Assembly (NCBI GenBank): GCA_020722815.1
Contig: DYKB01000065.1
Coordinates: 1 to 38,857 of the forward strand
Reading direction: 5' to 3'
DNA from: Caldithrix sp.
GTDB lineage: Bacteria; Zhuqueibacterota; Zhuqueibacteria; Thermofontimicrobiales; Sulfurfontimicrobiaceae
Length of the DNA stretch: 38,857 bases
Both the position numbers and the translations under genes were made by a program. Shown piece by piece: positions 1 to 38,857 of the stretch. Numbering within the stretch: the stretch's first letter is position 1; every line of letters begins with the position of its first letter. The notes below the pieces were generated by a model, which saw only the letters and a list, made by a program, of their open reading frames with translations, was not told the DNA's origin and searched no databases.

Positions 1-120
1 GGTCAATAAGGTCGATTGGGTTTGATCGCGCGGCCTGGTTGATTAAAAACCTTATGAACCTGAGGAATTAGTAAAACCGGCGACACAACAAATTTGATAC
101 TATTCCCTGTGATCGGTTAC
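1..120 (+). mobile_element. Partial copy (right end) of a MITE-like repeat family. The window starts inside the element. Terminal inverted repeat CCCTGTGATCGGTTAC at 105..120.
   Basis: About 90% identical over ~120 bp to 29448..29569. Reverse-complement match to 38804..38857. Confidence 0.6.
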
Positions 121-3481: not shown

Positions 3482-3793
3482 AAATTGCCCTCGCAATTTG
3501 CATCTTAAATGATAAAAATTTATTAATACACATCATCAAAAATTGATGTTCCATGATTCGTCGCTGCGTGAAATTACTGGCATCCAGATTCTGGCATGAT
3601 TGAAAAATGATTTTAAGCAAGCAAATCATCCAGGTTAACCTTTGTCATCTTCAGACTTATTTTATACCATTTCAATACGTGAATACGAAACTTAAGGTTT
3701 CATATTTGCACTTTTTGATGAATTTTTCAAATATCTCTGTTTATTAAAGATCACATTATCATTTTTAAAAATCAAGAGAAACTTTGGCTTTGG

Positions 3794-3826
3794 TAAAAAA
3801 AAGGAGTGCCATTTTCAGGGCACTCC
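3794..3826 (-). terminator. Rho-independent terminator on the minus strand (GC hairpin GGAGTGCC/GGCACTCC followed by a T-run when read on the minus strand)
   Basis: Plus strand reads AAAAAAAAGGAGTGCCATTTTCAGGGCACTCC. Confidence 0.5.
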
Positions 3827-4087
3827 TTCCTGGGGTTAGAGATAATACTGAGTCATCTGAGGTTTTGTTTGTGTCATTTTTTCGGAATGAATCGAGGTAG
3901 CTTTATGCAACTTATCATCTGTGTTTTTTCTATAAAGGTGCTCCTTATATAGTGAATGGATATTTTAAATTCTGATTATTTCTATTAATTTTTCTTTGCA
4001 ATCTTTGTTTTAATTTAATTCAAATTATATGCCAATTTATCAATCATTATTTTTCAATAAGTTAGCAATCATCGTGAATTTGACACC

Positions 4088-4123
4088 ATGCAAAATTTGC
4101 AGATCATCCTGCAAATTTTGCAT
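4088..4123. promoter_or_regulatory. Perfect 15-bp inverted repeat ATGCAAAATTTGCAG-N6-CTGCAAATTTTGCAT. A third half-site lies near 4246..4262.
   Basis: Read directly from the sequence. Sits in the ~1 kb non-coding gap between the peptidase stop and the pspA start. Confidence 0.45.
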
Positions 4124-4461
4124 TTTTCGAAAATCGGGAAGTTTGTTTGCACAGGCATTAAGACTGATTTAACGGTGGTTCATTAAGAAATTTCAGAATA
4201 AAAAAAAGCTATGCCTGTATTTTTGGCATAAAATAGTAAAAAAGATGCAAATTTTGCAGGTTGGCATAATTTATTAAAAACCGAATAAGCATTTAAAATT
4301 ATTGAACTTACAGAATTTTGGATAAACCAAATTTTCCACTTTCGTTGATGGCCATTTTTTGAGGTTTCCAAAGAAAAAAATCGATGAAAAATGAAGTGAA
4401 ATTATTAAAATTCCCCCAACTCGAATTAATTAAACAAATTTCGGGGTGATAAAAAAGTGAA

Positions 4462-7400
4462 TTAGCGGAGGAGTAGCATTTTATAGACTTTCTTTAGTGC
4501 AGGCGTCGCGATTGAAGCATAATAAACACCGCTGGGAACAATTTTACCAATCGAATCCTTCCCATCCCAGCTAATTTTATACGAACCCGGAGAATTCCAC
4601 TCATCCCGAAGAACACAAAGCTGGTGGCCAAGGCTGTTATAAATAATGATACGGACCAGACCTGAATTTTCCTGAAAATACCTTATTTGGGTTATTGCAT
4701 TGAAGGGATTTGGGAAGGTCCCAACTGCATATTCTTGGATTATAGACTCCCGGGTATTTTTCAGGTCAGGAGGCGCGGGCGGAAGCAGCGTTAGATTATT
4801 AGGACTTGTGCCTGATATCAACTGGTCAGGATTTAGCGATATTTGAGCAGGACCGGATACGATATTTAAAGTACACTGTTGAGTTGCATAAATCCAATAG
4901 CCTTTCATCGGTTCCAAAAGTGCTGTCCCCGCGGGATAAATGGGAATCACCGATTGTGTATTCGTATCCCATCCATGAACGCTGGTGATAGTACCATCGG
5001 GTTCATCGTTGGGATCGTTAAACGTCACCGGCGCAAGAGGTGAACCGATTAAATGCCAGCCTGGGCTCAATGTTGATTGCAGTTCGTACACCGGAATCCC
5101 TGTAATCGTAAGCGTTTGAGGGCTAGCAACGTGAAGCCAATAGCCGCTATTAGGCAGCAAGCTATCGACCTGTTGATAAATCGTTTGACGATTATTGAAT
5201 ATGTACGCCGCCATATCGTGCGATAAAATTGCATTCACGCGCTGGTTTGCCGGATAAACTGGCACTGAAATAAGATACCAACCAGCTATCGGAAATTCAT
5301 AATTGACCTGAACCGGCCGGGGGGTATAGTCAATCTGAATTAATTGCGCGTGACTGATTTGTGCTGAACTTGAAATCGACATGTCGAGATTCAGATTACC
5401 ACCGCTCAACTGAAAGCAATAATTTTCAATCTGGGGAAGATCGGCAGGCTCCCATGATATTGAAACGGGATTTGCCAATGAATCACCCGTAATTATTTTC
5501 CAGCCGATACTATCGGTGTAAGGCAGGCACCAGGGCTGAATATCCCGAGCTAACGTGTCCTGATCATGTAAGAAAAAATTGGAATACGTCATTCTTACTG
5601 AATCCATCGCTTCATCGAGTCCGGCGTCAAAATCTCTGCTCGCACACGAATCTCCGCCAATCGTCAGATAATAAACAGAATCACCCGTTTCAATTCGGAT
5701 CGGTAACTCCCATTGTGCACCAATTCTACCCCAAATTGGCACCTGAAGAAATCGCTCATCTGAATCATTGCAGACAATTTTAATGAGGCTCTGCTCCTGG
5801 TTGCGACTGATGGCCAGAAAATTAACCCGCAGCGAACAACATTGTCCGGACTCCAGTAAAATGGGCAAAGCATCCAGATTCGTCAGGCGATAATTGGAGG
5901 AATCCAGACGGGTTTCCAACTCAATGTTGAGTAATTGAAGCGCCTGGTTCCCCTGATTAACAATTTTGAGGTATTGTTCTGAAAAAGAGCCCAATTTAAC
6001 CACGCCAAAATCCATTTTTTCGGGAAAAGTCTGAATTTCAGGTCCGAAATTACCAATTTGAAAAACAGAATCACTTTCATCTGAAATTATATCGTCCAGG
6101 CTGCTGATTTTGATTTTGCATTGCTTACTTTCTGGTCCGGAAACCAGCCACAATTCATTCTCATCATTGAAAGTCGAATCCAATAAAGTTTCCCAGCTAA
6201 TTCCATTGTCACGGGTCAATTCAATTTTAATCGCACGATCGTAATTTTTTGCAATCCAGGAAATTGTCTGATTTGAGCCAGGCGACCAAAGGTCTCCACT
6301 TCCCGGACACGTCAGGGAAAGTGATGGCGTGGCGTCGGTTATAAATTTTATTGATAAAGAACCGGTGGTGTTGGCTGCTACCAAAAGCGGCGTCTGTTGC
6401 GAGACAAAAACGCTCTCAGGATTTCGATTTTCATAATTCTCAAACTGCTCAATGGCAAAATAACCAATCCGGGCGGTTTCTGTCGTTGCATTATTTTGAA
6501 CTTTTAAACGCCAATAACCCTGATTTGCTTCGATATATTTGGATAATTCAGAAACATCAAGTACCATAAAATTTGCTGGAAACGAGGAATTACCGCCTTT
6601 TAATTGAAAATCATTAAAAGACTTCGTTTTATAGGTAATGCTTTCATCACAAACATCAATGGAAATCGCACATTGCCCCCGTTGGGGGTGTTGAATTTCG
6701 AAAACAGAAAGTAATTGAGGTTGATAATTTTCGTAATTTTGATAAACCATGTAAAATTTAATGCGCTCTTTTAAACACTGGTATGAAATATAATAAAATC
6801 CATCATGAACCTTTTCCCAATTATAAGTGCCAACGCCCCATGAATTTGCAATTTTGAATGCCCCCCGAAGGTCGGTTTTTCCATTTTCAGGGTAGGGACC
6901 AAAATTATCATCATAACCCACGATAACATTGGCATGATTTACCTCGGTTGCTAGGTAATTATCGGTTGTCCACAGGTCATCATTGGATAATTTTGCATAA
7001 TAACGCGCATCGATGGCAATCAGTGCCAGATTCTGATTGGCAAGTAAACTTTTAAGATTTTGCAGGGCATCATCGGAAGTTAAATCGGTGGTCGCAAAGG
7101 CCGTTGCCGAACGATAAAGGGGTGCTTCGCGCCAGGCTGTTTCGGTAGGCCAGGTGGTGGAATTAAATGGATTATAGGGCATATTTTCCCAGGTGGCACA
7201 ACCGATACGTTCCAGCAGATTCATAGCGTCATAAAAAGTGGCACCCTCATCTTTGCCATCGTTAATCTGGTGATAAATAAAATCTGGCGAAAAAATTTTG
7301 GCATGATATGATGGATCGGGCTGGCCATAATCGTTCTGATTCCAGACACATTTCGAAAGGTCCCATTGGTGTTCGCGTGCTTCCTGGAAGGTTTTAACAT

Positions 7401-7773
7401 AGTACCCACAGGCCCAGCCAATGCAGGAACCTTCACTGTATTGATTACCAATTGGCGGAAACCAGTGGGTCAGGGCATTATCCACCTTATTGGGGAGCTC
7501 CAGCGAAACCGATTGGACATATTCCAATCTAACCGGTGCGCTGGAAATTTCAGCCCACTCACTTTCTGTCGGCGGTCTCAAGCCCGTTCCCTGCCCGAGA
7601 ATCCGCTCATTATAATTTTTTCCTTCCTGGAAAGTACCCAAATATGCTCGTAATTCATCCAATTCTTTTACAGTCAGATGTCTTCTGGTTGTCTTTATGT
7701 GACGCGCAGCCGTCGAAGAAAAAAGTACGAGACAGGTAAACAGGAAAATAGTCCAACGTCGTTTCTGTAACAT
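4462..7773 (-). CDS. Secreted papain-family (C1) cysteine peptidase with a long beta-rich extension and a T9SS C-terminal sorting domain
   Basis: Signal peptide. Catalytic motifs QYSEGSCIGWACGYY (Cys), NHANVIVGYDDNF (His) and NSWGVGTYNW...GFYYISY (Asn/Trp). C-terminus ...SGVYYASIATPALKKVYKMLLLR is a typical Por_Secre_tail. Confidence 0.8.
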   Translation of the reverse strand: MLQKRRWTIFLFTCLVLFSSTAARHIKTTRRHLTVKELDELRAYLGTFQEGKNYNERILGQGTGLRPPTESEWAEISSAPVRLEYVQSVSLELPNKVDNALTHWFPPIGNQYSEGSCIGWACGYYVKTFQEAREHQWDLSKCVWNQNDYGQPDPSYHAKIFSPDFIYHQINDGKDEGATFYDAMNLLERIGCATWENMPYNPFNSTTWPTETAWREAPLYRSATAFATTDLTSDDALQNLKSLLANQNLALIAIDARYYAKLSNDDLWTTDNYLATEVNHANVIVGYDDNFGPYPENGKTDLRGAFKIANSWGVGTYNWEKVHDGFYYISYQCLKERIKFYMVYQNYENYQPQLLSVFEIQHPQRGQCAISIDVCDESITYKTKSFNDFQLKGGNSSFPANFMVLDVSELSKYIEANQGYWRLKVQNNATTETARIGYFAIEQFENYENRNPESVFVSQQTPLLVAANTTGSLSIKFITDATPSLSLTCPGSGDLWSPGSNQTISWIAKNYDRAIKIELTRDNGISWETLLDSTFNDENELWLVSGPESKQCKIKISSLDDIISDESDSVFQIGNFGPEIQTFPEKMDFGVVKLGSFSEQYLKIVNQGNQALQLLNIELETRLDSSNYRLTNLDALPILLESGQCCSLRVNFLAISRNQEQSLIKIVCNDSDERFLQVPIWGRIGAQWELPIRIETGDSVYYLTIGGDSCASRDFDAGLDEAMDSVRMTYSNFFLHDQDTLARDIQPWCLPYTDSIGWKIITGDSLANPVSISWEPADLPQIENYCFQLSGGNLNLDMSISSSAQISHAQLIQIDYTPRPVQVNYEFPIAGWYLISVPVYPANQRVNAILSHDMAAYIFNNRQTIYQQVDSLLPNSGYWLHVASPQTLTITGIPVYELQSTLSPGWHLIGSPLAPVTFNDPNDEPDGTITSVHGWDTNTQSVIPIYPAGTALLEPMKGYWIYATQQCTLNIVSGPAQISLNPDQLISGTSPNNLTLLPPAPPDLKNTRESIIQEYAVGTFPNPFNAITQIRYFQENSGLVRIIIYNSLGHQLCVLRDEWNSPGSYKISWDGKDSIGKIVPSGVYYASIATPALKKVYKMLLLR

Positions 7774-7866
7774 TAACAGGCTCCAAAAAAATCCAGCAAA
7801 TCAGCGACTTTCGATGTTTTAAACCGACCAGAGTTGGAGTAAGTCCGCCTTTACTTTAAAATACTA

Positions 7867-12911: not shown

Positions 12912-15900
12912 CTATCGCACTATCATCACTTTTTTATATGCATTATATGGGTCTGATTTTAAAGTAATGAGATACAGACCACTCCCAACTTTCATTCCAT
13001 TTTGCGTCCACCCATTCCAGTAATAGGTGTTCCATCCTGCCGGATAAAAAGCATCCGTTAATTGCGTCACATGCGAACCCGCCAGGTCATAAACATCCAG
13101 CTTCGCCTGCCGATTCGTACTCAGTTTAAAGTTAATCCCCAGGCTTTCTTCGCTCTCAGGCTGATAAACATTTCGTTCCAACACGAAATCATTGCTGCTA
13201 TATATTTCAACCGAGGTGGAAGAACGCGCCGTATTTCCGGCGATATCAGTCACAATCAATTCAAACCGGATTTCTTCATGATCCGCCGATGAATAAAGCC
13301 GGGTATTCGTATATTTTATCGGAAGGGTAATTTTTATACCCGGTTGAATCATGATTGTCGAAACAAGCTCATCTGCAAAATTCTTTTCTATCTCCCCATT
13401 TGCCAGATATACCCAGATATCCCAGGTTTGAACCGGATTGGAGACCTCGATCTCAATCGTAATCGGCTCACCAACTTCAATTTTTCTGGGCAAAGTTCCG
13501 ATCGAAACGCTTAAATCACCAATTGGTATTTGTGATTGGATATTATACACCGTATCTGTCACACTATTGTTACCGCGATGGGGATCGCCTTCGTTTTGCG
13601 CCTGAATTCTTACCTGATTTATCAACAAATTTTCACCAATCGGCATGATGGCGGGTACCGTCGCATCAAACTGAATGGAAATAGTTGAATCAGGCATTAA
13701 TTGACCGAATTCCCAGACAATTTTACGATTTGCATTTTGAACCGGTGGATGATTAAAATTATTCGTGGTAACAAATTGTGGAATTGAATCAGCTACAATC
13801 AGATTTCTCGCAATACCTTCGGATATATTCTGAATGCGAATGCGATATTGATAAGTTTCACCCGATTTTGCAAAATGAATCGTATCACCGGCAATAATCG
13901 TGAAAGAATCCGTATCAGTAAATTGAATGACCGAAATATCGACCGGCGGCGCGGACTGAATATTGACGACAGTATCGATGACGACATTATTGCTCCGGTA
14001 TTCTTCAGCTTCATTTTGGGCATTTATCACAACCTGATTTATTAATAAATTTTCACCAAGTGGCATCCCAACCGGCACCGTCGCCTCAAAACTGAGGAAC
14101 AGCATTGAATCCGGTCGCAGTCGATTAATTTGCCAGGTTACTTTTCGATTTTCTTTCTGAACCGGTTGAATATTAAAATTACTGACGCTGACAAATTCCG
14201 GTATAGAATCCGTTACCATAATATTTTGTGCAACGCCTTCCAACAAATTTTCTATCTGAATAAAATAGTGGTATGTTTCTCCTGATTTGGCATAATGAGT
14301 TGTATCCCCGTCATTTACAATAAATGAATCGGTTTTCACAAGTTGGCTCACCGAAACATCCACTGGCAGTTGAGGCTGACTTTGAATATTAAAAACTGTG
14401 TCAATCGTGCTATTGTTATCCAGATACTCCGGACTTTCATTTTGGACCTGAATTTGAACCTGATTGATTAACAAATTCTCTCCCAGCGGCATTAAAAATG
14501 GAACTGATGCATTGAATTTGATAAATATGGATGAATCTGGCATTAATTGGGGAATTTCCCAAATTAACTTTCGATTTGTATTCTGATCCGGTGGTCTATT
14601 AAATTGACTCGTTAAAATAAATGCCGGAAGTGAATCTATAATAACGATATTCTGCGCTATGCCTTCCAATTGATTTCGAATCAAAATTTGATATTGGTAG
14701 GTTTCACCGGATTTAACAAAATGAACGGTATCACCCGCCATGATGGCCATTGAATCCGTTTTAATGAACTGAAGCACCGATACATCAACCGGAAATTGAG
14801 GTTGACTTTGAATATTGATGACGGTGTCGACAACGCTATTATTTTTTAAGTACGTACTATCTTCGTTTTGCGCCGACACCTGAACCTGATTAATCAATAA
14901 ATTTTCACCAACCGGCATTATCATTGGCAAAGTCGCATCAAATGTAATTTGAACTATCGAATCAGGTAATAACTGACCAACTTCCCAAATGATTTTTCGC
15001 TTCGCATTTTGAACCGGTGGAATGTTAAAATTTACGACTGTAACAAAATTCGGGATTGAATCGGTAATAACGATATTTTGCGCCACTCCATCCGATGGAT
15101 TTTGAATTCGGAGTTGATAATGGTAAGTTTCTCCCGACTTTGCATAACGTATCGTATCCCCGGCAACAATAGCAAAGGAATCTGTTTTGACATAATGCCG
15201 CACCGCAACATCCACAGGTGGTTCTGGTTCGTTTACAATATTAAATACCGTGTCAACAACACTATTATTACCCAAAAATTCTGAATGCTCATTAGCGGCC
15301 TGTATTTGCACCCGGTTTATTAGCAAATTTTCACCTGTTGGCATTGCCACTGGCAAGGTTGCATTAAAGGTGACAATAAAAATCGAATCCGGCGGTAATT
15401 GATCAATTTCCCAGGTTATTTTTCGATTGCTATTTTGAACAGGTACCTGATTAAAATTATCAACAGAAACAAATTCCGGAATAGAATCAATTATAACGAC
15501 ATTTCTGGCTACGCCTTTCGAGGGGTTTTGAACTAAAACGTGATATTGATAAGTTTCACCTGACTGTGCGTAATGAACAGTATCACCGGAAATTACGACA
15601 AATGAATCGGTTTTGGTAAACTGGGTGACAGAAATATCAACATCGGGAGAATCGATTGGCGCAAATGGAATGGCCATTATATTGGTTTCGGCAAAATTAT
15701 TATCCAGCAGCGAATCAAGCCGGGCAAACACACCACTTCGATTAATGACCTGAAATGAATCAGCAATGAGCGAATCTGTAAGTCGCGCTTGAAATTCCAC
15801 GGCCATCGATTGCCCTGCCAGCAGTGAATCAATCAACCAGAACAGCGTATCCTGTACCTGAGAATCTGGTGATACCGAAAAATTGAATAAATCAACTGAA

Positions 15901-17591
15901 TCCGATAAAATATCCCACAATTTTATTTCATGGGCAGTCACCGGACCCAGATTTTGAATTTGTAATTGATAGCGATACTGCTGTCCCGGTAAAACGACCT
16001 GAATCGAATCGCCATTAATTAAAATTAAGGAATCGGTTTCAACTTCTTGTGATAAGGACAGATCAAATTTATATTCAACCGGCGGTGCTGGTGGATTCAA
16101 AACGGTAATTGAATCTATATCAGTATTATTTTGAAGTGAGGAGTCGTTGTCAACATAAACATAAGCCTGACTCTTCAATTGCGTCATATTCGTAAAATCG
16201 CTATCAGGTAAAAACACGTTAATTTGCAATTCAATTTCATTACCTGGTGCCAATTCATCAAGCTCCCAACTCAGCATTCGGGAGTTAAGTTGGCGGGCCT
16301 GTTCTGAAGCATTTATAAATTGGACATGATCGGGTAAAATATGAATCATTTTCAAATTCCTGGCGATTTCAGCATTCAGATTTCGAACGGTAAGGGTATA
16401 TTGAAAATTATTTCCAGGCTCTACCGCCCGAAGGGTTTCGCCATTCACAACGACAGCCGTATCAGATACAGAACTCAATCCGATTGACACATCGGTAAAA
16501 GGGCCGGTGCCCTGAACAAAATATCGACCGGTTCCTTGGCCGGAGCCTGAAGCCGTATTGACTGTAACATCGACAACGCGCCAGGTATTGTTATACACCG
16601 GATCAGTTGATGTATGGGCCATGATATAAAAATTATGGATTAACTGCGAAAGGTGTCGATAAATATCTTCAATATTCCGATTGGCATCTGTCTGGAAAAA
16701 CAATCCGCCAGTACTATCAGCAATCGCCTTTAAAGTATCTGGATTTGCCCCGGTCCCGTATGCAATTGTAAAAATAGAAGTATTATAGTATAAAGCACTG
16801 TCGACAACATCTTCTTTAGTATAGATTGACGCGTTATCTTCACCATCGGCATATACAATAATCGACCGTTTACCAGTGATATTTTTTAATTGTTGAATTG
16901 CCAGAATCAGGGCATCATAAAGTCCCGTTCGACCTCTGGCCTGAGCAGTGTTTAAAACGGCCATCAATTGTGTCGTATCGGCCGTGATGGGTTGATTCGC
17001 AATTATCTGATCATCAAAGACAATGATACCAACTTCATCATTCGAACGCATCATCCGAACAAAGCTTCGCGCACCTTCAACTGCATTGGTAATCTCTTTT
17101 CGCATACTCCAACTGGCATCCATCAACAGCATGGTGCGAACCGGAATGTCGATCGCCTCACGAATTTCTGTAAATAAAGGCTGAGGTTGTTGAAAAAATA
17201 CATTGGGACTGGCTGGCAAATCGGGATTTTCATGATGATATTCGAGAACAGGCTGCCAGATATCTGAAATGCGTGAACCTATCTCCGCGGTTTCATCGGC
17301 TCCCAACCAGCGAGCAGTATCTGCCAGGCCAGTTATGGGTACCCCCGAACTATCCAGTACCGAGATCGTTGATAAAATTGGAAATGGAAAATCCGCGACC
17401 AGCCCATGGACTTCAAAATCACGATTGAGAGAGATCGTATTAATGCTGACTTTTAATTTTAATAAATCATTATTCTGGGTAAGTGCTTTTTGTGAACCAA
17501 GCAAAATAAAAAATCCAGAAAAAAGTAACAGTATTTGCCGAAAAATAACAAATACATTCTCCAAATGACATCGCTTCCGTGTGATATGCAT
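12912..17591 (-). CDS. Giant T9SS-secreted adhesin: signal peptide, vWA domain with intact MIDAS (LLMDASWSM), at least 7 DUF11 (conserved repeat domain, PF01345-like) repeats, T9SS C-terminal sorting domain
   Basis: DxSxS MIDAS motif. Repeated ~141-aa units GDTxHYAKSGETYxY...ARNxxxxDSIPxF...NRKIxWExxQLxPDSxxxIxFxATxP. C-terminus GSGLYLITLKSDPYNAYKKVMIVR. Confidence 0.8.
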   Translation of the reverse strand: MHITRKRCHLENVFVIFRQILLLFSGFFILLGSQKALTQNNDLLKLKVSINTISLNRDFEVHGLVADFPFPILSTISVLDSSGVPITGLADTARWLGADETAEIGSRISDIWQPVLEYHHENPDLPASPNVFFQQPQPLFTEIREAIDIPVRTMLLMDASWSMRKEITNAVEGARSFVRMMRSNDEVGIIVFDDQIIANQPITADTTQLMAVLNTAQARGRTGLYDALILAIQQLKNITGKRSIIVYADGEDNASIYTKEDVVDSALYYNTSIFTIAYGTGANPDTLKAIADSTGGLFFQTDANRNIEDIYRHLSQLIHNFYIMAHTSTDPVYNNTWRVVDVTVNTASGSGQGTGRYFVQGTGPFTDVSIGLSSVSDTAVVVNGETLRAVEPGNNFQYTLTVRNLNAEIARNLKMIHILPDHVQFINASEQARQLNSRMLSWELDELAPGNEIELQINVFLPDSDFTNMTQLKSQAYVYVDNDSSLQNNTDIDSITVLNPPAPPVEYKFDLSLSQEVETDSLILINGDSIQVVLPGQQYRYQLQIQNLGPVTAHEIKLWDILSDSVDLFNFSVSPDSQVQDTLFWLIDSLLAGQSMAVEFQARLTDSLIADSFQVINRSGVFARLDSLLDNNFAETNIMAIPFAPIDSPDVDISVTQFTKTDSFVVISGDTVHYAQSGETYQYHVLVQNPSKGVARNVVIIDSIPEFVSVDNFNQVPVQNSNRKITWEIDQLPPDSIFIVTFNATLPVAMPTGENLLINRVQIQAANEHSEFLGNNSVVDTVFNIVNEPEPPVDVAVRHYVKTDSFAIVAGDTIRYAKSGETYHYQLRIQNPSDGVAQNIVITDSIPNFVTVVNFNIPPVQNAKRKIIWEVGQLLPDSIVQITFDATLPMIMPVGENLLINQVQVSAQNEDSTYLKNNSVVDTVINIQSQPQFPVDVSVLQFIKTDSMAIMAGDTVHFVKSGETYQYQILIRNQLEGIAQNIVIIDSLPAFILTSQFNRPPDQNTNRKLIWEIPQLMPDSSIFIKFNASVPFLMPLGENLLINQVQIQVQNESPEYLDNNSTIDTVFNIQSQPQLPVDVSVSQLVKTDSFIVNDGDTTHYAKSGETYHYFIQIENLLEGVAQNIMVTDSIPEFVSVSNFNIQPVQKENRKVTWQINRLRPDSMLFLSFEATVPVGMPLGENLLINQVVINAQNEAEEYRSNNVVIDTVVNIQSAPPVDISVIQFTDTDSFTIIAGDTIHFAKSGETYQYRIRIQNISEGIARNLIVADSIPQFVTTNNFNHPPVQNANRKIVWEFGQLMPDSTISIQFDATVPAIMPIGENLLINQVRIQAQNEGDPHRGNNSVTDTVYNIQSQIPIGDLSVSIGTLPRKIEVGEPITIEIEVSNPVQTWDIWVYLANGEIEKNFADELVSTIMIQPGIKITLPIKYTNTRLYSSADHEEIRFELIVTDIAGNTARSSTSVEIYSSNDFVLERNVYQPESEESLGINFKLSTNRQAKLDVYDLAGSHVTQLTDAFYPAGWNTYYWNGWTQNGMKVGSGLYLITLKSDPYNAYKKVMIVR
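13500..15650. repeat. Five near-identical tandem repeats of ~423 bp (141 codons) inside the adhesin gene. More diverged copies extend to ~16500.
   Basis: Recurring strings such as AATTTTCACCAA(T/C)CGGCAT at ~13620, 14050, 14470, 14900 and 15330 (period ~423 bp). Confidence 0.8.
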
Positions 17592-27147: not shown

Positions 27148-27706
27148 GCTTTACCAAACCTTGCGCCTTTTGAGGTCAGTCCAGAATTTGGTTTTAAATC
27201 ACCATTAATTGTTATTCACGCTCCGGGTTAAAGGTTTGGCAAAGCCCACGCGCCGCTTTGCCAAACCTCGCCGAATCACCAACTGGTGAGAAACGCAAAA
27301 ATCGTCCTGAAAAGCCGAAACGTGGTTTGTGAATCTGGTTTGGTAAAGCTTGAGCTGCGTAAAAACCTCGAGTACAAGCTTTACCAAACCTTGCACCTTT
27401 CGGGGTCAGGTCAGGATTGGTTTTTAAATCACCATTAATTGTTATTTACGCTCCGGGTTGAAGGTTTGGGAAAGCTTATTCACCGCTTTGCCAAACCTCG
27501 CCGAATCACCAACTGGTGAGAAACGCAAAAATCGTCCTGAAAAACCGAAACGTGGTTTGTAAATCTGGTTTGGTAAAGCTTGGGGTGACCTGAGAGCTTG
27601 GGAAAAAGCTTTACCAAACCTTGCGCCCTTTGTGGTATGGTCAGGTATTGCTTTTAAACCACCTTCAGATATTCAATGACATTCCGGATTATAGGTTTGG
27701 CAAAGC
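27148..27706. repeat. Tandem array (2.4 copies, period 230 bp) of a ~202-bp unit bounded by inverted 13-mers GCTTTACCAAACC ... GGTTTGGTAAAGC, with an internal hairpin GGTTTGGCAAAGC-N10-GCTTTGCCAAACC
   Basis: Units at 27148..27349, 27378..27579 and 27608..~27706. The 28-bp spacers between units differ. Confidence 0.8.
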
Positions 27707-27715
27707 TCCCTGCTT

Positions 27716-27832
27716 TACTATCATCGCGCAATGTTTTGCATTAAATTCATTTTGCATCGCTATCATCGCGCACTGTTTTGCATCAAAATTATTTTGCATA
27801 GCTATCAACGCCCAATGTTCAGAATTTAGAAC
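27716..27832. repeat. About 2.7 copies of a 42-bp tandem repeat (TCATCGCGCAMTGTTTTGCAT + YAAATTCATTTTGCATMGCTA)
   Basis: Read directly. It also generates a spurious Cys/Ala-rich ORF at 27621..27860. Confidence 0.7.
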
Positions 27833-27926
27833 GCTTTGTTTTGTTGAAAATGGCCTTTGATTGAAAGTAAGTATTCAGTTTAGTTTAAAGATTATGCTTT
27901 TTCAGGGAGAGTTTGCAAAAATTTAT

Positions 27927-28994
27927 TCAATTCTCAGCCTTTTCCGTGAGACTTTTAATCCCAAAGTCAATAATCGGGGCAAACATGTTAGCGAGCAGAA
28001 TGGCGAACATAACGCCGCCGGCAAAGAGGGAGAATGAGCGAATCAGCACTGTGAGCATGCCGGCCATGGCACCATAAATCCAGCGGCCGGCATTCGTGCG
28101 GGCCATGGAGACGGGGTCGGTGATCATAAAATAGCCGGCATAAACCAGGCCACCCGCAAGCAAGCCAAACAAGGGATGGGGAACCTGCGCAGGGACAGTT
28201 AAATGCAGGATTGTTTGCAGCACCAGGAATCCGCCGAAGAAACTAACCACTACACGCCAGTTGGCAATTTTTTTATAAAGCAGATAAATCCCGCCAATTG
28301 ACAGCAATAGCGCCGAAGTCTCCCCCAGTGAGCCGCCGCCAATTCCAACCAAATTCCCAAGCTTTTCAAATTGGCCATTAATATTACCGAGAAATAGTTG
28401 CCAGTAATCCGGAAGTGCGGCGGCACCATCACGGAAGGCACTAAGTGGCGTGGCGGTCGTGATGGCATCCACTAAATCGGCGGCTTTGGTGAAGTGCCAG
28501 GACACAAATCCAGCCGGAAAATCGCTGAAATTGGCAGCGGGCAACCAGCGATTGGTCATGTGAACCGGAAAAGTAATGTAAACAAAACCTCTGGCCACCA
28601 GTGCCGGATTAAACACATTATTTCCAAATCCACCAAAGGCCATTTTACCGAAAGTTACGCCGAAAATCGCCCCTAAAGGAACCATCCACAACGGAATTGT
28701 CGGGGGCAGACTCAACGCGTAAAGGATGGCCGTGACGAGGATGGCTTCGGTGACTTTTCCGTTTTTCCCGCGCACAAAAAGCCATTCGGTTAAGACACAG
28801 GTGATAATTGAGAGGAGGGTAACAACAAATGCGAACCAGCCGAAAAAGAAAACCGCACCGAAGAGCACCGGTATGAGGGCATAAACGACTGTCCGCATGG
28901 CTGGTTGTTTCTGGAAAGCAATTTTAAGTGACATAAGAATCCTGTTGTTATATAATAGAATATGTTTGTAACGCAGCGGATGCGGAAAACGCAA
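27927..28994 (-). CDS. RnfD/NqrB-family integral membrane protein (orphan). Real start possibly the internal Met at ~28934.
   Basis: LSLPPTIPLWMVPLGAIFGVTFGKMAFGGFGNNVFNPALVARGF and GIGGGSLGETSALLLSIGGIYL match conserved NqrB/RnfD blocks. Confidence 0.8.
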   Translation of the reverse strand: MRFPHPLRYKHILLYNNRILMSLKIAFQKQPAMRTVVYALIPVLFGAVFFFGWFAFVVTLLSIITCVLTEWLFVRGKNGKVTEAILVTAILYALSLPPTIPLWMVPLGAIFGVTFGKMAFGGFGNNVFNPALVARGFVYITFPVHMTNRWLPAANFSDFPAGFVSWHFTKAADLVDAITTATPLSAFRDGAAALPDYWQLFLGNINGQFEKLGNLVGIGGGSLGETSALLLSIGGIYLLYKKIANWRVVVSFFGGFLVLQTILHLTVPAQVPHPLFGLLAGGLVYAGYFMITDPVSMARTNAGRWIYGAMAGMLTVLIRSFSLFAGGVMFAILLANMFAPIIDFGIKSLTEKAEN

Positions 28995-29095
28995 AGAATA
29001 AACCGCTTATTTTGCATAAGCGCTTCTTCTGCTAACTTCTGTGAGTGCTTCATCGCTGCGTTGTTTTATTTATTTTCGATAAGCAGCTAAATTTT

Positions 29096-29569
29096 GTAAC
29101 CGATCACAGGGTGAAAACGAACAATTATCATTTTTTGTGTCCAGGGCAGCGGTGGATAAAGTCTGCTGGAATATCCTCAAGCCGACTGCGCCTCATCAAA
29201 AGATCAGCTTTGCTGAAAAGGGTGAACACTTTATTGAATGTTGTCATCCGACATTGTCGCTGAAAAAGATTAAGAAAGATAACGTTGGCTGGATTTGACC
29301 CATCCGGTTGGTTGAGGTAACACCTTCTTAACCTTAGTAATCCGCCAAACCCGGAACACCACCAACCTTATTCCCTTATTGGTGATGATAATCAAATGAA
29401 AAAATAAGGTCATAAGGTTAAATTGTCGGGACCCTCGAATTGTTACTAAGGTCAATAAGGTTTATTGGGTTTGATCGCGCGGCCTAGTTGATTAAAAACC
29501 TTATTATCCTTAGGAATCAGTAAAACCGGCGACACAACAAATTTGATCCTATTCCCTGTGATCGGTTAC
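29096..29569. mobile_element. Complete MITE-like element of 474 bp. 16-bp TIRs GTAACCGATCACAGGG / CCCTGTGATCGGTTAC. 8-bp target-site duplication TAAATTTT (29088..29095 and 29570..29577).
   Basis: Same family as 1..120 and 38804..38857. Interior is rich in AAGGT/ACCTT hairpins. The only ORF (61 aa) is implausible. Confidence 0.7.
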
Positions 29570-29849
29570 TAAATTTTTTATACCCGTGCAAATTGATATT
29601 AAAAAATTGTTACAAACTTTGTGATAATGCTAAAATATACAAAATCAACTCAGGAAAAACAATATTTTTTTATGATGGTTTTGGGGATGAATTTGAGGAT
29701 TAATCGATATTATGCGATGAATCAGGAAGTTGCGTGGTCCCCCAAAATGCACTTCGCCATAACAACCACCGCACTATTTTGTTATTAAGCATCCCCCCCG
29801 GCCTGTCGAAGCTTGCCCTGAGCCTGTCGAAGAGGGTGAAATCCACCCG

Positions 29850-31157
29850 TCAAATTCGCGCCAGTCCCAAAAAGACCGCATGAAGCATAATGATGAGACT
29901 CAAAAAAATCCGGCGTGATTTCTCCGGATTGAATTTCAGTAAGGAATAGTGAATCCAGTTTCCCTTACAACTGGTAATACAATCGCCGCAAAGGGTGCAG
30001 GTTGGGCCGGGACGTTTTTTTTGAATATCATCGAATGATAAGGCATCGTATCGGCAGACGAAATGGCAGGCACGGCATTCGGTACACTCATTATCCAGCC
30101 TGATACGAAAAAGCGATAATTTGCCAAGCCAGTTTGCTACCAGTCCCATGGGGCAATAGGTTATACAATGTGTCATAATTCCTTTTTTTCGCGACCAGAA
30201 AACCATCAGACCGATTCCAAATAGTCCAAAAGCGATGGCGAGACCCAGCGCAAGGCTTATGGAGAGGCCGGCAAATCGGAGTACCAGACTGATGACAATG
30301 ACGCCGACAAGAATTCCCAACCGCAGCTTTCCAGCCCAGCCCGGCATTTTTTGGGGTCGCGTGCTATTTTGTGCAGCCAGATTATCCCAGGCACCAATGT
30401 AGCACAGATAGCTGCACCAGGCCGGGCCGGCTAATAAGACCGTTACACCAAAAAGAATGGGCATAAAAAAACCGGTACCCCGATAAATTGGTCCGCCCAA
30501 AATGAGTGCCGGAATCGGCAGATGCAATTTGCCAGTCATCAGGAACTTCTCAAAGCCAATCAGTCCCAATAATAATTGGAGAAAGAAAACAATGGAAAAT
30601 CCCAGCCAGAGTCGCAAACGCCACTGGCGGCTGGTTTCGGTAATATAAATTTTATCAACCATCCAGCCAGCGTACAAAGCTAATCCGAAAATCTGGAGCC
30701 AGCCATAATTGGGAAAGAATCGTTCAACCAATAACATGGGGGGCTGCACTTGCAGGTGGACAATTCCCAGAACGATCGCCGTCAGGATAAAGGTGACGGT
30801 GCTGAGTGTCGCGGTTTCGGGGACCCGATTAATACGTTCCTGCAATTTTTGATTTCGAAATAATAAAAGCGAGATAACCGTAAAAAGTGCCACACTTCCC
30901 AGAATAGCAATTAAGCGAATCCAGGGCTGACCCGCGGCTTGCCGGATTTGAACCAATTGCATCAGGCTACGAATCCATTCGAATGTCCCAAGTAAAAGGG
31001 CCAATTGAATAATATTGGAAATCCATTTTTTACGAAAAAGGAGAAGTACCGGCAAAAGGAGACAAATCCAGACCAACGCCGGCGCATTATGCCGGGAAAA
31101 GTGCGCTCCTAACAAAATGAAGGATAGAATTACCAGGACAATACGGAGTAAATTCAT
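29850..31157 (-). CDS. Polytopic membrane iron-sulfur protein of the NapH/MauN/NosR-C-terminal family (polyferredoxin)
   Basis: ~10 TM helices. CxYLCxxG-type motif AWCSYLCYIGAW. Two C-terminal 4Fe-4S motifs CTECRACHFVC and CTLCGDCITSC. Confidence 0.65.
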   Translation of the reverse strand: MNLLRIVLVILSFILLGAHFSRHNAPALVWICLLLPVLLLFRKKWISNIIQLALLLGTFEWIRSLMQLVQIRQAAGQPWIRLIAILGSVALFTVISLLLFRNQKLQERINRVPETATLSTVTFILTAIVLGIVHLQVQPPMLLVERFFPNYGWLQIFGLALYAGWMVDKIYITETSRQWRLRLWLGFSIVFFLQLLLGLIGFEKFLMTGKLHLPIPALILGGPIYRGTGFFMPILFGVTVLLAGPAWCSYLCYIGAWDNLAAQNSTRPQKMPGWAGKLRLGILVGVIVISLVLRFAGLSISLALGLAIAFGLFGIGLMVFWSRKKGIMTHCITYCPMGLVANWLGKLSLFRIRLDNECTECRACHFVCRYDALSFDDIQKKRPGPTCTLCGDCITSCKGNWIHYSLLKFNPEKSRRIFLSLIIMLHAVFLGLARI

Positions 31158-38787: not shown

Positions 38788-38803
38788 TTAGTATTCTGAC
38801 AGA

Positions 38804-38857
38804 GTAACCGATCACAGGGAATAGTATCAAATTTGTTGTGTCGCCGGTTTTACTGAT
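38804..38857 (-). mobile_element. Third copy of the 29096..29569 MITE family, in inverted orientation. Starts with the TIR GTAACCGATCACAGGG and is truncated by the window end.
   Basis: Reverse complement equals the 3' part of 1..120. Confidence 0.6.

Follow-up and report, generated by a model that had tools for sequence, protein, structure and literature searches.

Insertion sequences (ISs) of the IS66 family generally have terminal inverted repeats (TIRs) that begin with 5'-GTAA. The canonical IS66 group carries the genes tnpA and tnpB upstream of the transposase gene tnpC, and the ISBst12 group has a single-transposase layout. Direct repeats of 8 bp flank the IS66-family elements ISPpa5a and ISPpa7 (PMC3281130) and ISDge4 of the ISBst12 group, which is bounded by the TIRs GTGACTACTCAGCA and GTAACTGCTCAGCA (PMC12898284). 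MITEs (miniature inverted-repeat transposable elements) derived from ISs of other families are found in bacteria, for example the IS982-derived MITE of Cardinium, with a length of about 240 bp (PMC9769881), and MITEPsy1 and MITEPsy2 of Pseudomonas syringae (PMC3189936). Here, we describe a 474-bp unit from a 38,857-nucleotide stretch of Caldithrix sp. DNA (assembly GCA_020722815.1, contig DYKB01000065.1), referred to in its full length as the window. We conclude, with a probability of about 0.9, that the unit is a non-autonomous IS66-family MITE that was presumably moved in trans.

The unit has in common with the IS66 family the GTAA start of the TIR, as in the right TIR of ISDge4, and a target site duplication (TSD) of 8 bp, and differs from it in having no transposase of its own. 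The autonomous partners of the MITE, which we identified in public metagenomes, lack the TnpA and TnpB accessory genes of canonical IS66 elements, and differ from the ISBst12 group by an extra gene for a DruA/DUF4338-like protein of about 290 residues. The MITEs of Cardinium and P. syringae are likewise small, non-coding, multicopy, intergenic, strongly self-complementary and assembly-breaking, with IS-copied TIRs and flanking TSDs, whereas their parent families, their TIRs and the lengths of their TSDs are different. The 474-bp MITE is at the large end of the size range of bacterial MITEs, and its interior holds a degenerate duplicate of the right end. A limited literature search gave no explicit account of a MITE derived from IS66, which is not proof of novelty. 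The original prediction, made from the letters of the window, had announced a new MITE family. The sequence family is new; the kind of element is well known.

Structure of the complete copy

The complete copy of the MITE is positioned between a NapH-like and an rnfD/nqrB-like gene, and two further copies are cut by the ends of the contig. The boundaries, the perfect TIRs and the perfect TSD that had been proposed for the complete copy could all be read directly from the sequence.

29088..29095, no strand: left 8-bp copy of the TSD, TAAATTTT (read directly)
29096..29569, + strand: MITE, complete 474-bp copy, non-coding (read directly, and by repeat self-comparison of the window)
29096..29111, + strand: left TIR, 16 bp, GTAACCGATCACAGGG (read directly, and by match count)
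29554..29569, - strand: right TIR, CCCTGTGATCGGTTAC, perfect complement of the left TIR (read directly)
29570..29577, no strand: right 8-bp copy of the TSD, TAAATTTT (read directly)
1..120, + strand: second copy, right-terminal 120 bp, cut by the contig end, 52 nt past the stop codon of a CYTH-domain gene; corresponds to L017 11970-12344
38804..38857, - strand: third copy, right-terminal 54 bp, inverted, cut by the contig end, 16 nt after the stop codon of a PurO-like gene; complete in L015

Sequences from outside the window are cited by locus number (L001, L002 and so on). The TSD of the central copy is exactly 8 bp long, as the ninth base differs between the two sides. The window contains four perfect matches to the TIR 16-mer, at 105-120 (-), 29096 (+), 29554 (-) and 38804 (+). 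With up to three mismatches allowed, 0.13 occurrences are expected in the shuffled window, and none of 100 shuffles reached four.

Copies of the element and the ends of the contig

The MITE is present in at least four distinct copies, three at loci on the contig of the window and one, L005, from the same cave sample. The copies occupy unrelated intergenic sites in both orientations. The description of the unit as multicopy and non-autonomous, with a 16-bp TIR and an 8-bp TSD, is supported. L005, which was returned by a scan of one genome per species with the repeat end, is a full copy of 474 bp, 93.7% identical to the central one, with perfect TIRs and its own 8-bp TSD, TATATTAA. It is located on a 4.4-kb contig of a metagenome-assembled genome (MAG) from the cave sample (SulCav_AS07-7) that is labelled Melioribacter roseus. 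Perfect TSDs thus flank two MITE copies, the central one and L005.

Other assemblies of the window's locus were found by exact-protein look-ups. L015 and L017 belong to an 86-kb NCBI contig (GCA_973313415.1, CCWRPB010000125.1), and L016 and L018 are JGI contigs of sample 3300000227 TB_AS07_7. The central copy is present in L015 (1029-1502) with 98.3% identity and with the same TIRs and TSD.

Metagenome contigs break within this repeat, and we considered whether the repeat is an assembly artefact, such as a chimeric or duplicated contig end. Eight clustered differences distinguish the central copy in the window (29336-29402) from that in the NCBI assembly (L015 1269-1335), despite 99.93% identity of the flanks. 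They could be caused by repeat collapse and consensus mixing between copies, or by strain variation. Against an artefact, two assemblies (the window and GCA_973313415.1) contain the central copy in full and agree in its TIRs and TSD, L005 is an independent site, and the divergence of 5-7% between copies indicates distinct loci. We therefore regard an artefact as vanishingly improbable.

The two copies that bracket the window had been reported as truncated. Their presence stands, and their truncation does not reflect biology, since they are cut by the contig ends and continue in the NCBI assembly. Positions 1-123 of the window are 93% identical to 29450-29572, slightly above the approximately 90% given for this recurrence by the original prediction. 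In L017, the left copy extends over at least 375 bp, with 94.7% identity to the central copy, until that contig also ends. The right copy was correctly placed directly after the PurO-like gene, the product of which matches the IMP-cyclohydrolase family PF07826. Window positions 38803-38857 are the reverse complement of 29516-29570 with 98% identity. The same copy is complete in L015 (10737-11144), where it measures 408 bp, is 93-94% identical to the central copy, lacks 66 bp of the interior and has one mismatch in a TIR. Since the right copy in full and at least 375 bp of the left one are seen in the other assembly, the bracketing copies are of the MITE type and are not ends of a full-length IS. 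The JGI contigs L016 and L018 likewise stop inside the repeat. We infer that the contig ends are repeat-induced assembly breaks, with copies longer than the k-mers of the assembler. The MITE would explain where the contig ends, and joins made through it may be chimeric; the 86-kb contig CCWRPB010000125.1, for example, may be misjoined beyond the position corresponding to 38857 of the window.

The arrangement of the bracketing copies, inverted and with the same end facing inward, would also be expected if they were the arms of a composite transposon of about 39 kb that carries the whole window. Neither of them shows a TSD of its own: it is missing from the right copy, and at the left copy the outer flank is off the contig, so that the outer flanks are not comparable. 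The putative cargo resembles ordinary chromosomal genes (the window encodes ClpS/ClpA-type proteins, a YchF GTPase, a PurO-like protein, an rnfD-like protein and a sugar kinase), a third copy, the central one, is located inside the segment, and contigs with both ends in a repeat are the expected product of a short-read assembler. A composite transposon is highly unlikely on these grounds.

Identity between any two copies is 93-95%, and the pattern is star-like, which fits one past burst and does not fit ongoing activity. The copies would subsequently have drifted apart by 5-7%, and the element is probably no longer moving in the source genome. The description of the element as apparently active was not upheld: the copies are star-like at 93-95%, one of them has decayed and lacks a TSD, and no transposase was found in the window or tied to the genome.

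Autonomous partners with the same ends

The original prediction had suggested a search for an autonomous element with the same TIRs and a transposase, and the search was positive in public metagenomes. We scanned one genome per species with a 21-base probe of the repeat end (GTAACCGATCACAGGGWRWAR), and metagenomes with the same probe. The 474-bp sequence family was met in the cave sample only. The metagenomes contain partner elements of approximately 2.35-2.45 kb with the same 16-bp ends and with two genes, one for a DruA/DUF4338-like protein and one for an IS66-family DDE transposase.

L020, 6-2350: full-length partner, 2345 bp, identical 16-bp TIR
L030, 1386-3776: full-length partner, 2391 bp, identical 16-bp TIR
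L031, 717-3122: full-length partner, 2406 bp, bounded by the TIR 16-mer
L035, 1568-3972: full-length partner, 2405 bp, bounded by the TIR 16-mer
L045, 45-2488: full-length partner, 2444 bp, identical 16-bp TIR
L046, 6340-8726: full-length partner, 2387 bp, bounded by the TIR 16-mer
L065, 104-2488: full-length partner, 2385 bp, exact left inverted repeat (IRL), one mismatch in the right inverted repeat (IRR), perfect TSD GAAAATTC
L057 (group L057-L064), 3916-6258: 2343 bp, related TIRs GTAACCACTCACAGGC and GTAAGCCCTCACAGGG, TSD CATGGAAA

The TSD of the L057-L064 group recurs in several independent assemblies. The partner transposases are composed of 459-526 residues and match the Pfam family DDE_Tnp_IS66 (PF03050) with E-values of 1e-31 to 1e-34, as well as DUF6444 and zf-IS66. 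They pass the NCBIfam equivalog model NF033517 'IS66 family transposase' with 234 and 236 bits at a cutoff of 180. The accessory protein of about 290 residues matches PF14236 (DruA/DUF4338) at 1e-34 to 1e-43. In at least ten loci, its gene is located just inside the TIR. The gene takes the place of tnpA and tnpB at the left end, and its last 8 nt or so are shared with the start of the IS66 transposase gene.

Shorter relatives have the same ends. L043 (134-1385) is a deletion derivative of 1252 bp with the TSD AAATAATT, and retains an intact DruA-like gene of 292 codons together with a 52-residue remnant of the transposase. Five short MITEs with the same TIR (L001, L002, L009, L012 and L014), with lengths of 134, 149, 159 or 205 bp, are each flanked by a perfect 8-bp TSD, and occur in KSB1 and Desulfobulbaceae MAGs. 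Perfect TSDs (8/8) were thus observed at ten independent insertions: two of the 474-bp MITE, five of short MITEs, and those of L043, L065 and L057. The targets are AT-rich, with the TSDs TAAATTTT, TATATTAA, CAAAAATC, GATATTTC, TAAAAAAG, TCTTTTTA, GGTTTATC, AAATAATT and GAAAATTC.

In about a dozen loci from the scans, only one TIR is present close to a contig end, or a second end is not recognisable. The match in L007 (4867-4882, Bacillota MAG) is a chance match to the 16-mer plus five degenerate bases inside a coding open reading frame (ORF), where it encodes ...VTDHRV... The product appears Fur-like by eye alone, with no family search run, and single TIR matches are not evidence of an element.

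Assignment to the IS66 family and proposed mechanism

The unit has the features of a MITE. It measures 474 bp with 16-bp TIRs, contains no coding sequence for a transposase, is dispersed in several copies, and has autonomous elements with the same ends in other samples. TSDs flank the central copy and L005, and are missing from the decayed right copy. The IS66-family placement follows from the agreement of three features: the 5'-GTAA start of the TIR (GTAACCGATCACAGGG), the 8-bp TSD, and the IS66-type DDE transposase (TnpC) encoded by the partners with the same TIR. The partners depart from the canonical IS66 group in that one DruA/DUF4338-like gene replaces tnpA and tnpB upstream of tnpC.

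Comparison with related genomes suggests that the MITE was inserted into its present site. The closest available relatives encode NapH-like proteins with 83-84% identity, and preserve the gene order cupin, NapH-like and RnfD. Their NapH-like to RnfD spacers, 326 bp in L051 and 711 bp in L054, are orthologous to that of the window and do not contain the MITE, which is thus probably an insertion and not ancestral sequence.

Several observations weigh against the assignment. The spacers of L051 and L054 are too diverged to define an empty site to the exact base. There is no transposase in the window, and no full-length partner was tied to the source genome. The probe scans returned neither the window's own contig from the genome collection nor any contig of JGI 3300000227 from the metagenome collection. 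The two partner loci with DruA-like proteins nearest to the L046 type come from other samples. Beyond the 16-bp TIR, the MITE is only weakly similar to any partner found; the best likeness is that of the left end of the MITE to the IRL of L046, with 22 identical bases (z=5.0). No direct parent was found, and this likeness is the sole indication of one. On the basis of the similarity to L046, we assign the left end of the MITE to the IRL of the parent IS type, the end next to the DruA-like gene.

The TSDs are also incomplete as a set. The right-hand copy has none, with the flanks CTGACAGA and GAATTGCC. An inversion between the bracketing copies was tried as the cause and rejected, as the sequence that it predicts, ACTAATTC, is unlike the observed GAATTGCC. 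All elements shorter than 500 bp that could be checked have an 8-bp TSD except this 408-bp copy (flank region L015 10729-11152). The full-length elements in L030, L031, L035 and L045 are also without matching flanks. As the simplest explanation, we assume that the TSDs of these full-length IS copies, and of the 408-bp copy, are missing because of chimeric metagenome contigs joined through collapsed repeats.

In the mechanism that we propose for the MITE, an IS66-type DDE transposase supplied in trans would bind the 16-bp ends. The target would be cut with an 8-bp stagger, and the unit inserted into AT-rich intergenic DNA. The family would have spread in a single past burst, after which its copies would have drifted.

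Non-coding interior, hairpins and internal duplicate

The interior of the MITE is non-coding, as had been stated. The longest ORFs inside the element comprise 39-74 codons, a Pfam search of the three longest gave no match, and differences between copies within these ORFs are mostly non-synonymous. A blastx comparison of the 474-bp unit with the partner transposase and DruA-like proteins returned noise only and no coding remnants, and a blastn search of the PLSDB plasmids at a distant setting returned no match to the unit.

29296..29395 (element 201-300), + strand: degenerate internal duplicate of the right-terminal approximately 100 bp of the MITE, with a decayed TIR (blast self-matches; alignment)
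29364..29419, no strand: hairpin A, inverted pair of TAAGG-N3-ATAAGG(TT), arms 29366-29378 (-) and 29405-29417 (+) (motif search and folding)
29446..29513, no strand: hairpin B, inverted pair of TAAGG-N4-ATAAGG(TT), arms 29447-29460 (+) and 29499-29512 (-) (motif search and folding)

The original prediction had called the unit rich in hairpins with paired TAAGG..AAGGTTT / AAACCTT..CCTTA arms, and paired TAAGG..AAGGTT arms were confirmed by folding and by motif counts. The predicted fold of the MITE is much more stable than those of shuffled sequences on both strands (z -5.4 and -4.9). The window contains four occurrences of the motif TAAGG-N3-5-[AT]AAGG, all of them in the right half of the MITE, where they form two inverted pairs; 0.59 occurrences are expected from shuffles. 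A motif search of the related IS elements did not find it. The internal duplicate and the right ends were aligned in four rows with a mean column identity of 81%, and the internal and terminal sequences are about 65-70% identical. Since element positions 201-300 are a degenerate copy of its last 100 bp or so, the MITE grew by duplication of its own right end, and this duplication partly explains the repeated TAAGG/CCTTA motifs.

The stable fold on both strands would also be consistent with a structured RNA or regulatory DNA module under selection in the host, for example a leader or a binding-site array of TAAGG-N3-4-ATAAGGTT motifs, in which case the inverted ends would be incidental. The four or five motif copies, with none elsewhere in the window, and the intergenic location of every copy near a gene end are in line with this explanation. 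We nevertheless consider it very unlikely. Rfam yielded no match, either at the gathering threshold in the whole window or at E<=1 in positions 28900-29900. The copies are present in both orientations beside unrelated genes (CYTH, PurO-like, rnfD-like and those flanking L005, the last of which were not searched), perfect 8-bp TSDs flank two of them, and their ends are those of IS66-type elements. The copies differ from each other without regard to the hairpins, and the central copy of the other assembly alters one arm without compensation. Compensatory changes in the hairpins were sought between copies; the differences are too few, and none of those observed is compensatory. The internal duplication of the right end accounts for some of the motif array. 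Neither a conserved non-coding RNA nor an attachment site, the opposing outcome named by the original prediction, was seen in the Rfam searches.

Insertion site and neighboring sequences

The ATG of the rnfD/nqrB-like gene is located at 28934 on the minus strand, and the MITE lies 161 nt upstream of it. The NapH-like gene is upstream of the insertion and is therefore unlikely to be affected by the MITE. The spacers of the window, L051 and L054 share a promoter-like block, AAAACATTGTTTTTCC...TTTTGTATATTT...CATTGTCA, and the start-codon region, and the MITE of the window is positioned between this block and the rnfD-like ATG. A consensus promoter scan was uninformative. If the block is a promoter, the mRNA of the rnfD-like gene would carry a 474-nt structured leader. 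We speculate from its position that the MITE might affect expression of the rnfD-like gene.

The spacer contains other repeats. The interval from the MITE to the rnfD-like start codon includes a stretch of about 90 bp (28970-29062) that is enclosed by a 9-bp inverted repeat, AACGCAGCG / CGCTGCGTT. At 29004-29022, this stretch has a hairpin resembling a terminator, and the spacers of L051 and L054 lack a counterpart to part of the stretch. The L054 spacer (1400-1860, JGI 3300042991) holds a different insert of about 450 bp with nested long inverted repeats, such as CCACGACCTGAAG...CTGAAGGTCGTGG and AACCTTTCGAAGGTT. This insert may be another MITE-like element, and the spacer may be a preferred landing site.

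Tandem repeats are present further along the window. A non-coding array just downstream of the rnfD-like gene (27148-27836) consists of 2.4 copies of a 230-bp unit (83% matches) and continues with a 42-bp unit that is repeated 2.4 times; CCAAACCTT / AAGGTTTGG palindromes are present in the units. At 13589-16039, within an ORF of 1559 codons (12912-17591, minus strand), a 420-426-nt unit is repeated in tandem five or six times with 60-80% identity; the repeats presumably encode protein domains of about 141 residues.

Relationship of the accessory protein to Druantia DruA

The DUF4338 family has been interpreted as having a GNAT-like acetyltransferase fold (PMC10853773). The accessory proteins of the partner elements, a feature not shared by the MITE itself, match the same Pfam family (PF14236 / DUF4338) as DruA of the Druantia system. 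They differ from it in size, with about 290 residues compared to the 407 positions of the PADLOC DruA model. The PADLOC model of Druantia DruA did not match two of three IS accessory proteins, and scored 37 bits with the third. The IS-borne DruA-like gene adjoins a transposase gene and not druB-E. In the literature searched, no paper names both DUF4338 and IS66.

At least 2432 homologues of the DruA-like protein were detected at E<=1e-10. They are encoded mostly on contigs of approximately 2.3-2.7 kb, which is the signature of a multicopy IS.

DUF4338 genes were also observed near transposases of other families. The plasmid pTs485 of Candidatus Thiodictyon syntrophicum (L056, NZ_CP020372.1) carries an IS4-family transposase gene (7041-7861) and, less than 3 kb upstream of it, a DUF4338 gene (3495-4373) that shares 38% identity with its IS-borne counterpart; integrase and IS91 transposase genes are located between the two. 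On a second plasmid, the tblastn match coincides with a gene that bears the annotation of an ISAs1-family transposase. Several IS families may have DUF4338 as a recurrent accessory gene.

Significance

In the source genome, a conserved promoter-like block and an rnfD/nqrB-like respiratory gene have the strongly structured 474 nt of the MITE between them, and the insertion sites of the MITE are markers for the comparison of strains. An orphan short repeat was linked to a transposase family with the end of the repeat as the sole probe, and the partner elements reached in this way are more interesting than the MITE itself. The IS66 subgroup with DruA-like proteins is common in environmental metagenomes, and seems to have been overlooked because its copies assemble as isolated contigs of about 2.4 kb.

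It is possible, although somewhat short of probable, that the MITE is the tip of a very abundant IS66 subgroup, undescribed in the literature that we found, in which a DruA/DUF4338-like protein of the GNAT fold replaces TnpA and TnpB, and which spawns MITEs in several lineages: the bacteria of the KSB1 and Desulfobulbaceae MAGs, and the cave bacterium. If so, DruA of the Druantia anti-phage system and a transposon accessory protein would share ancestry. This would be a further example of exchange between transposons and defence systems, and would offer a handle on the function of DUF4338.

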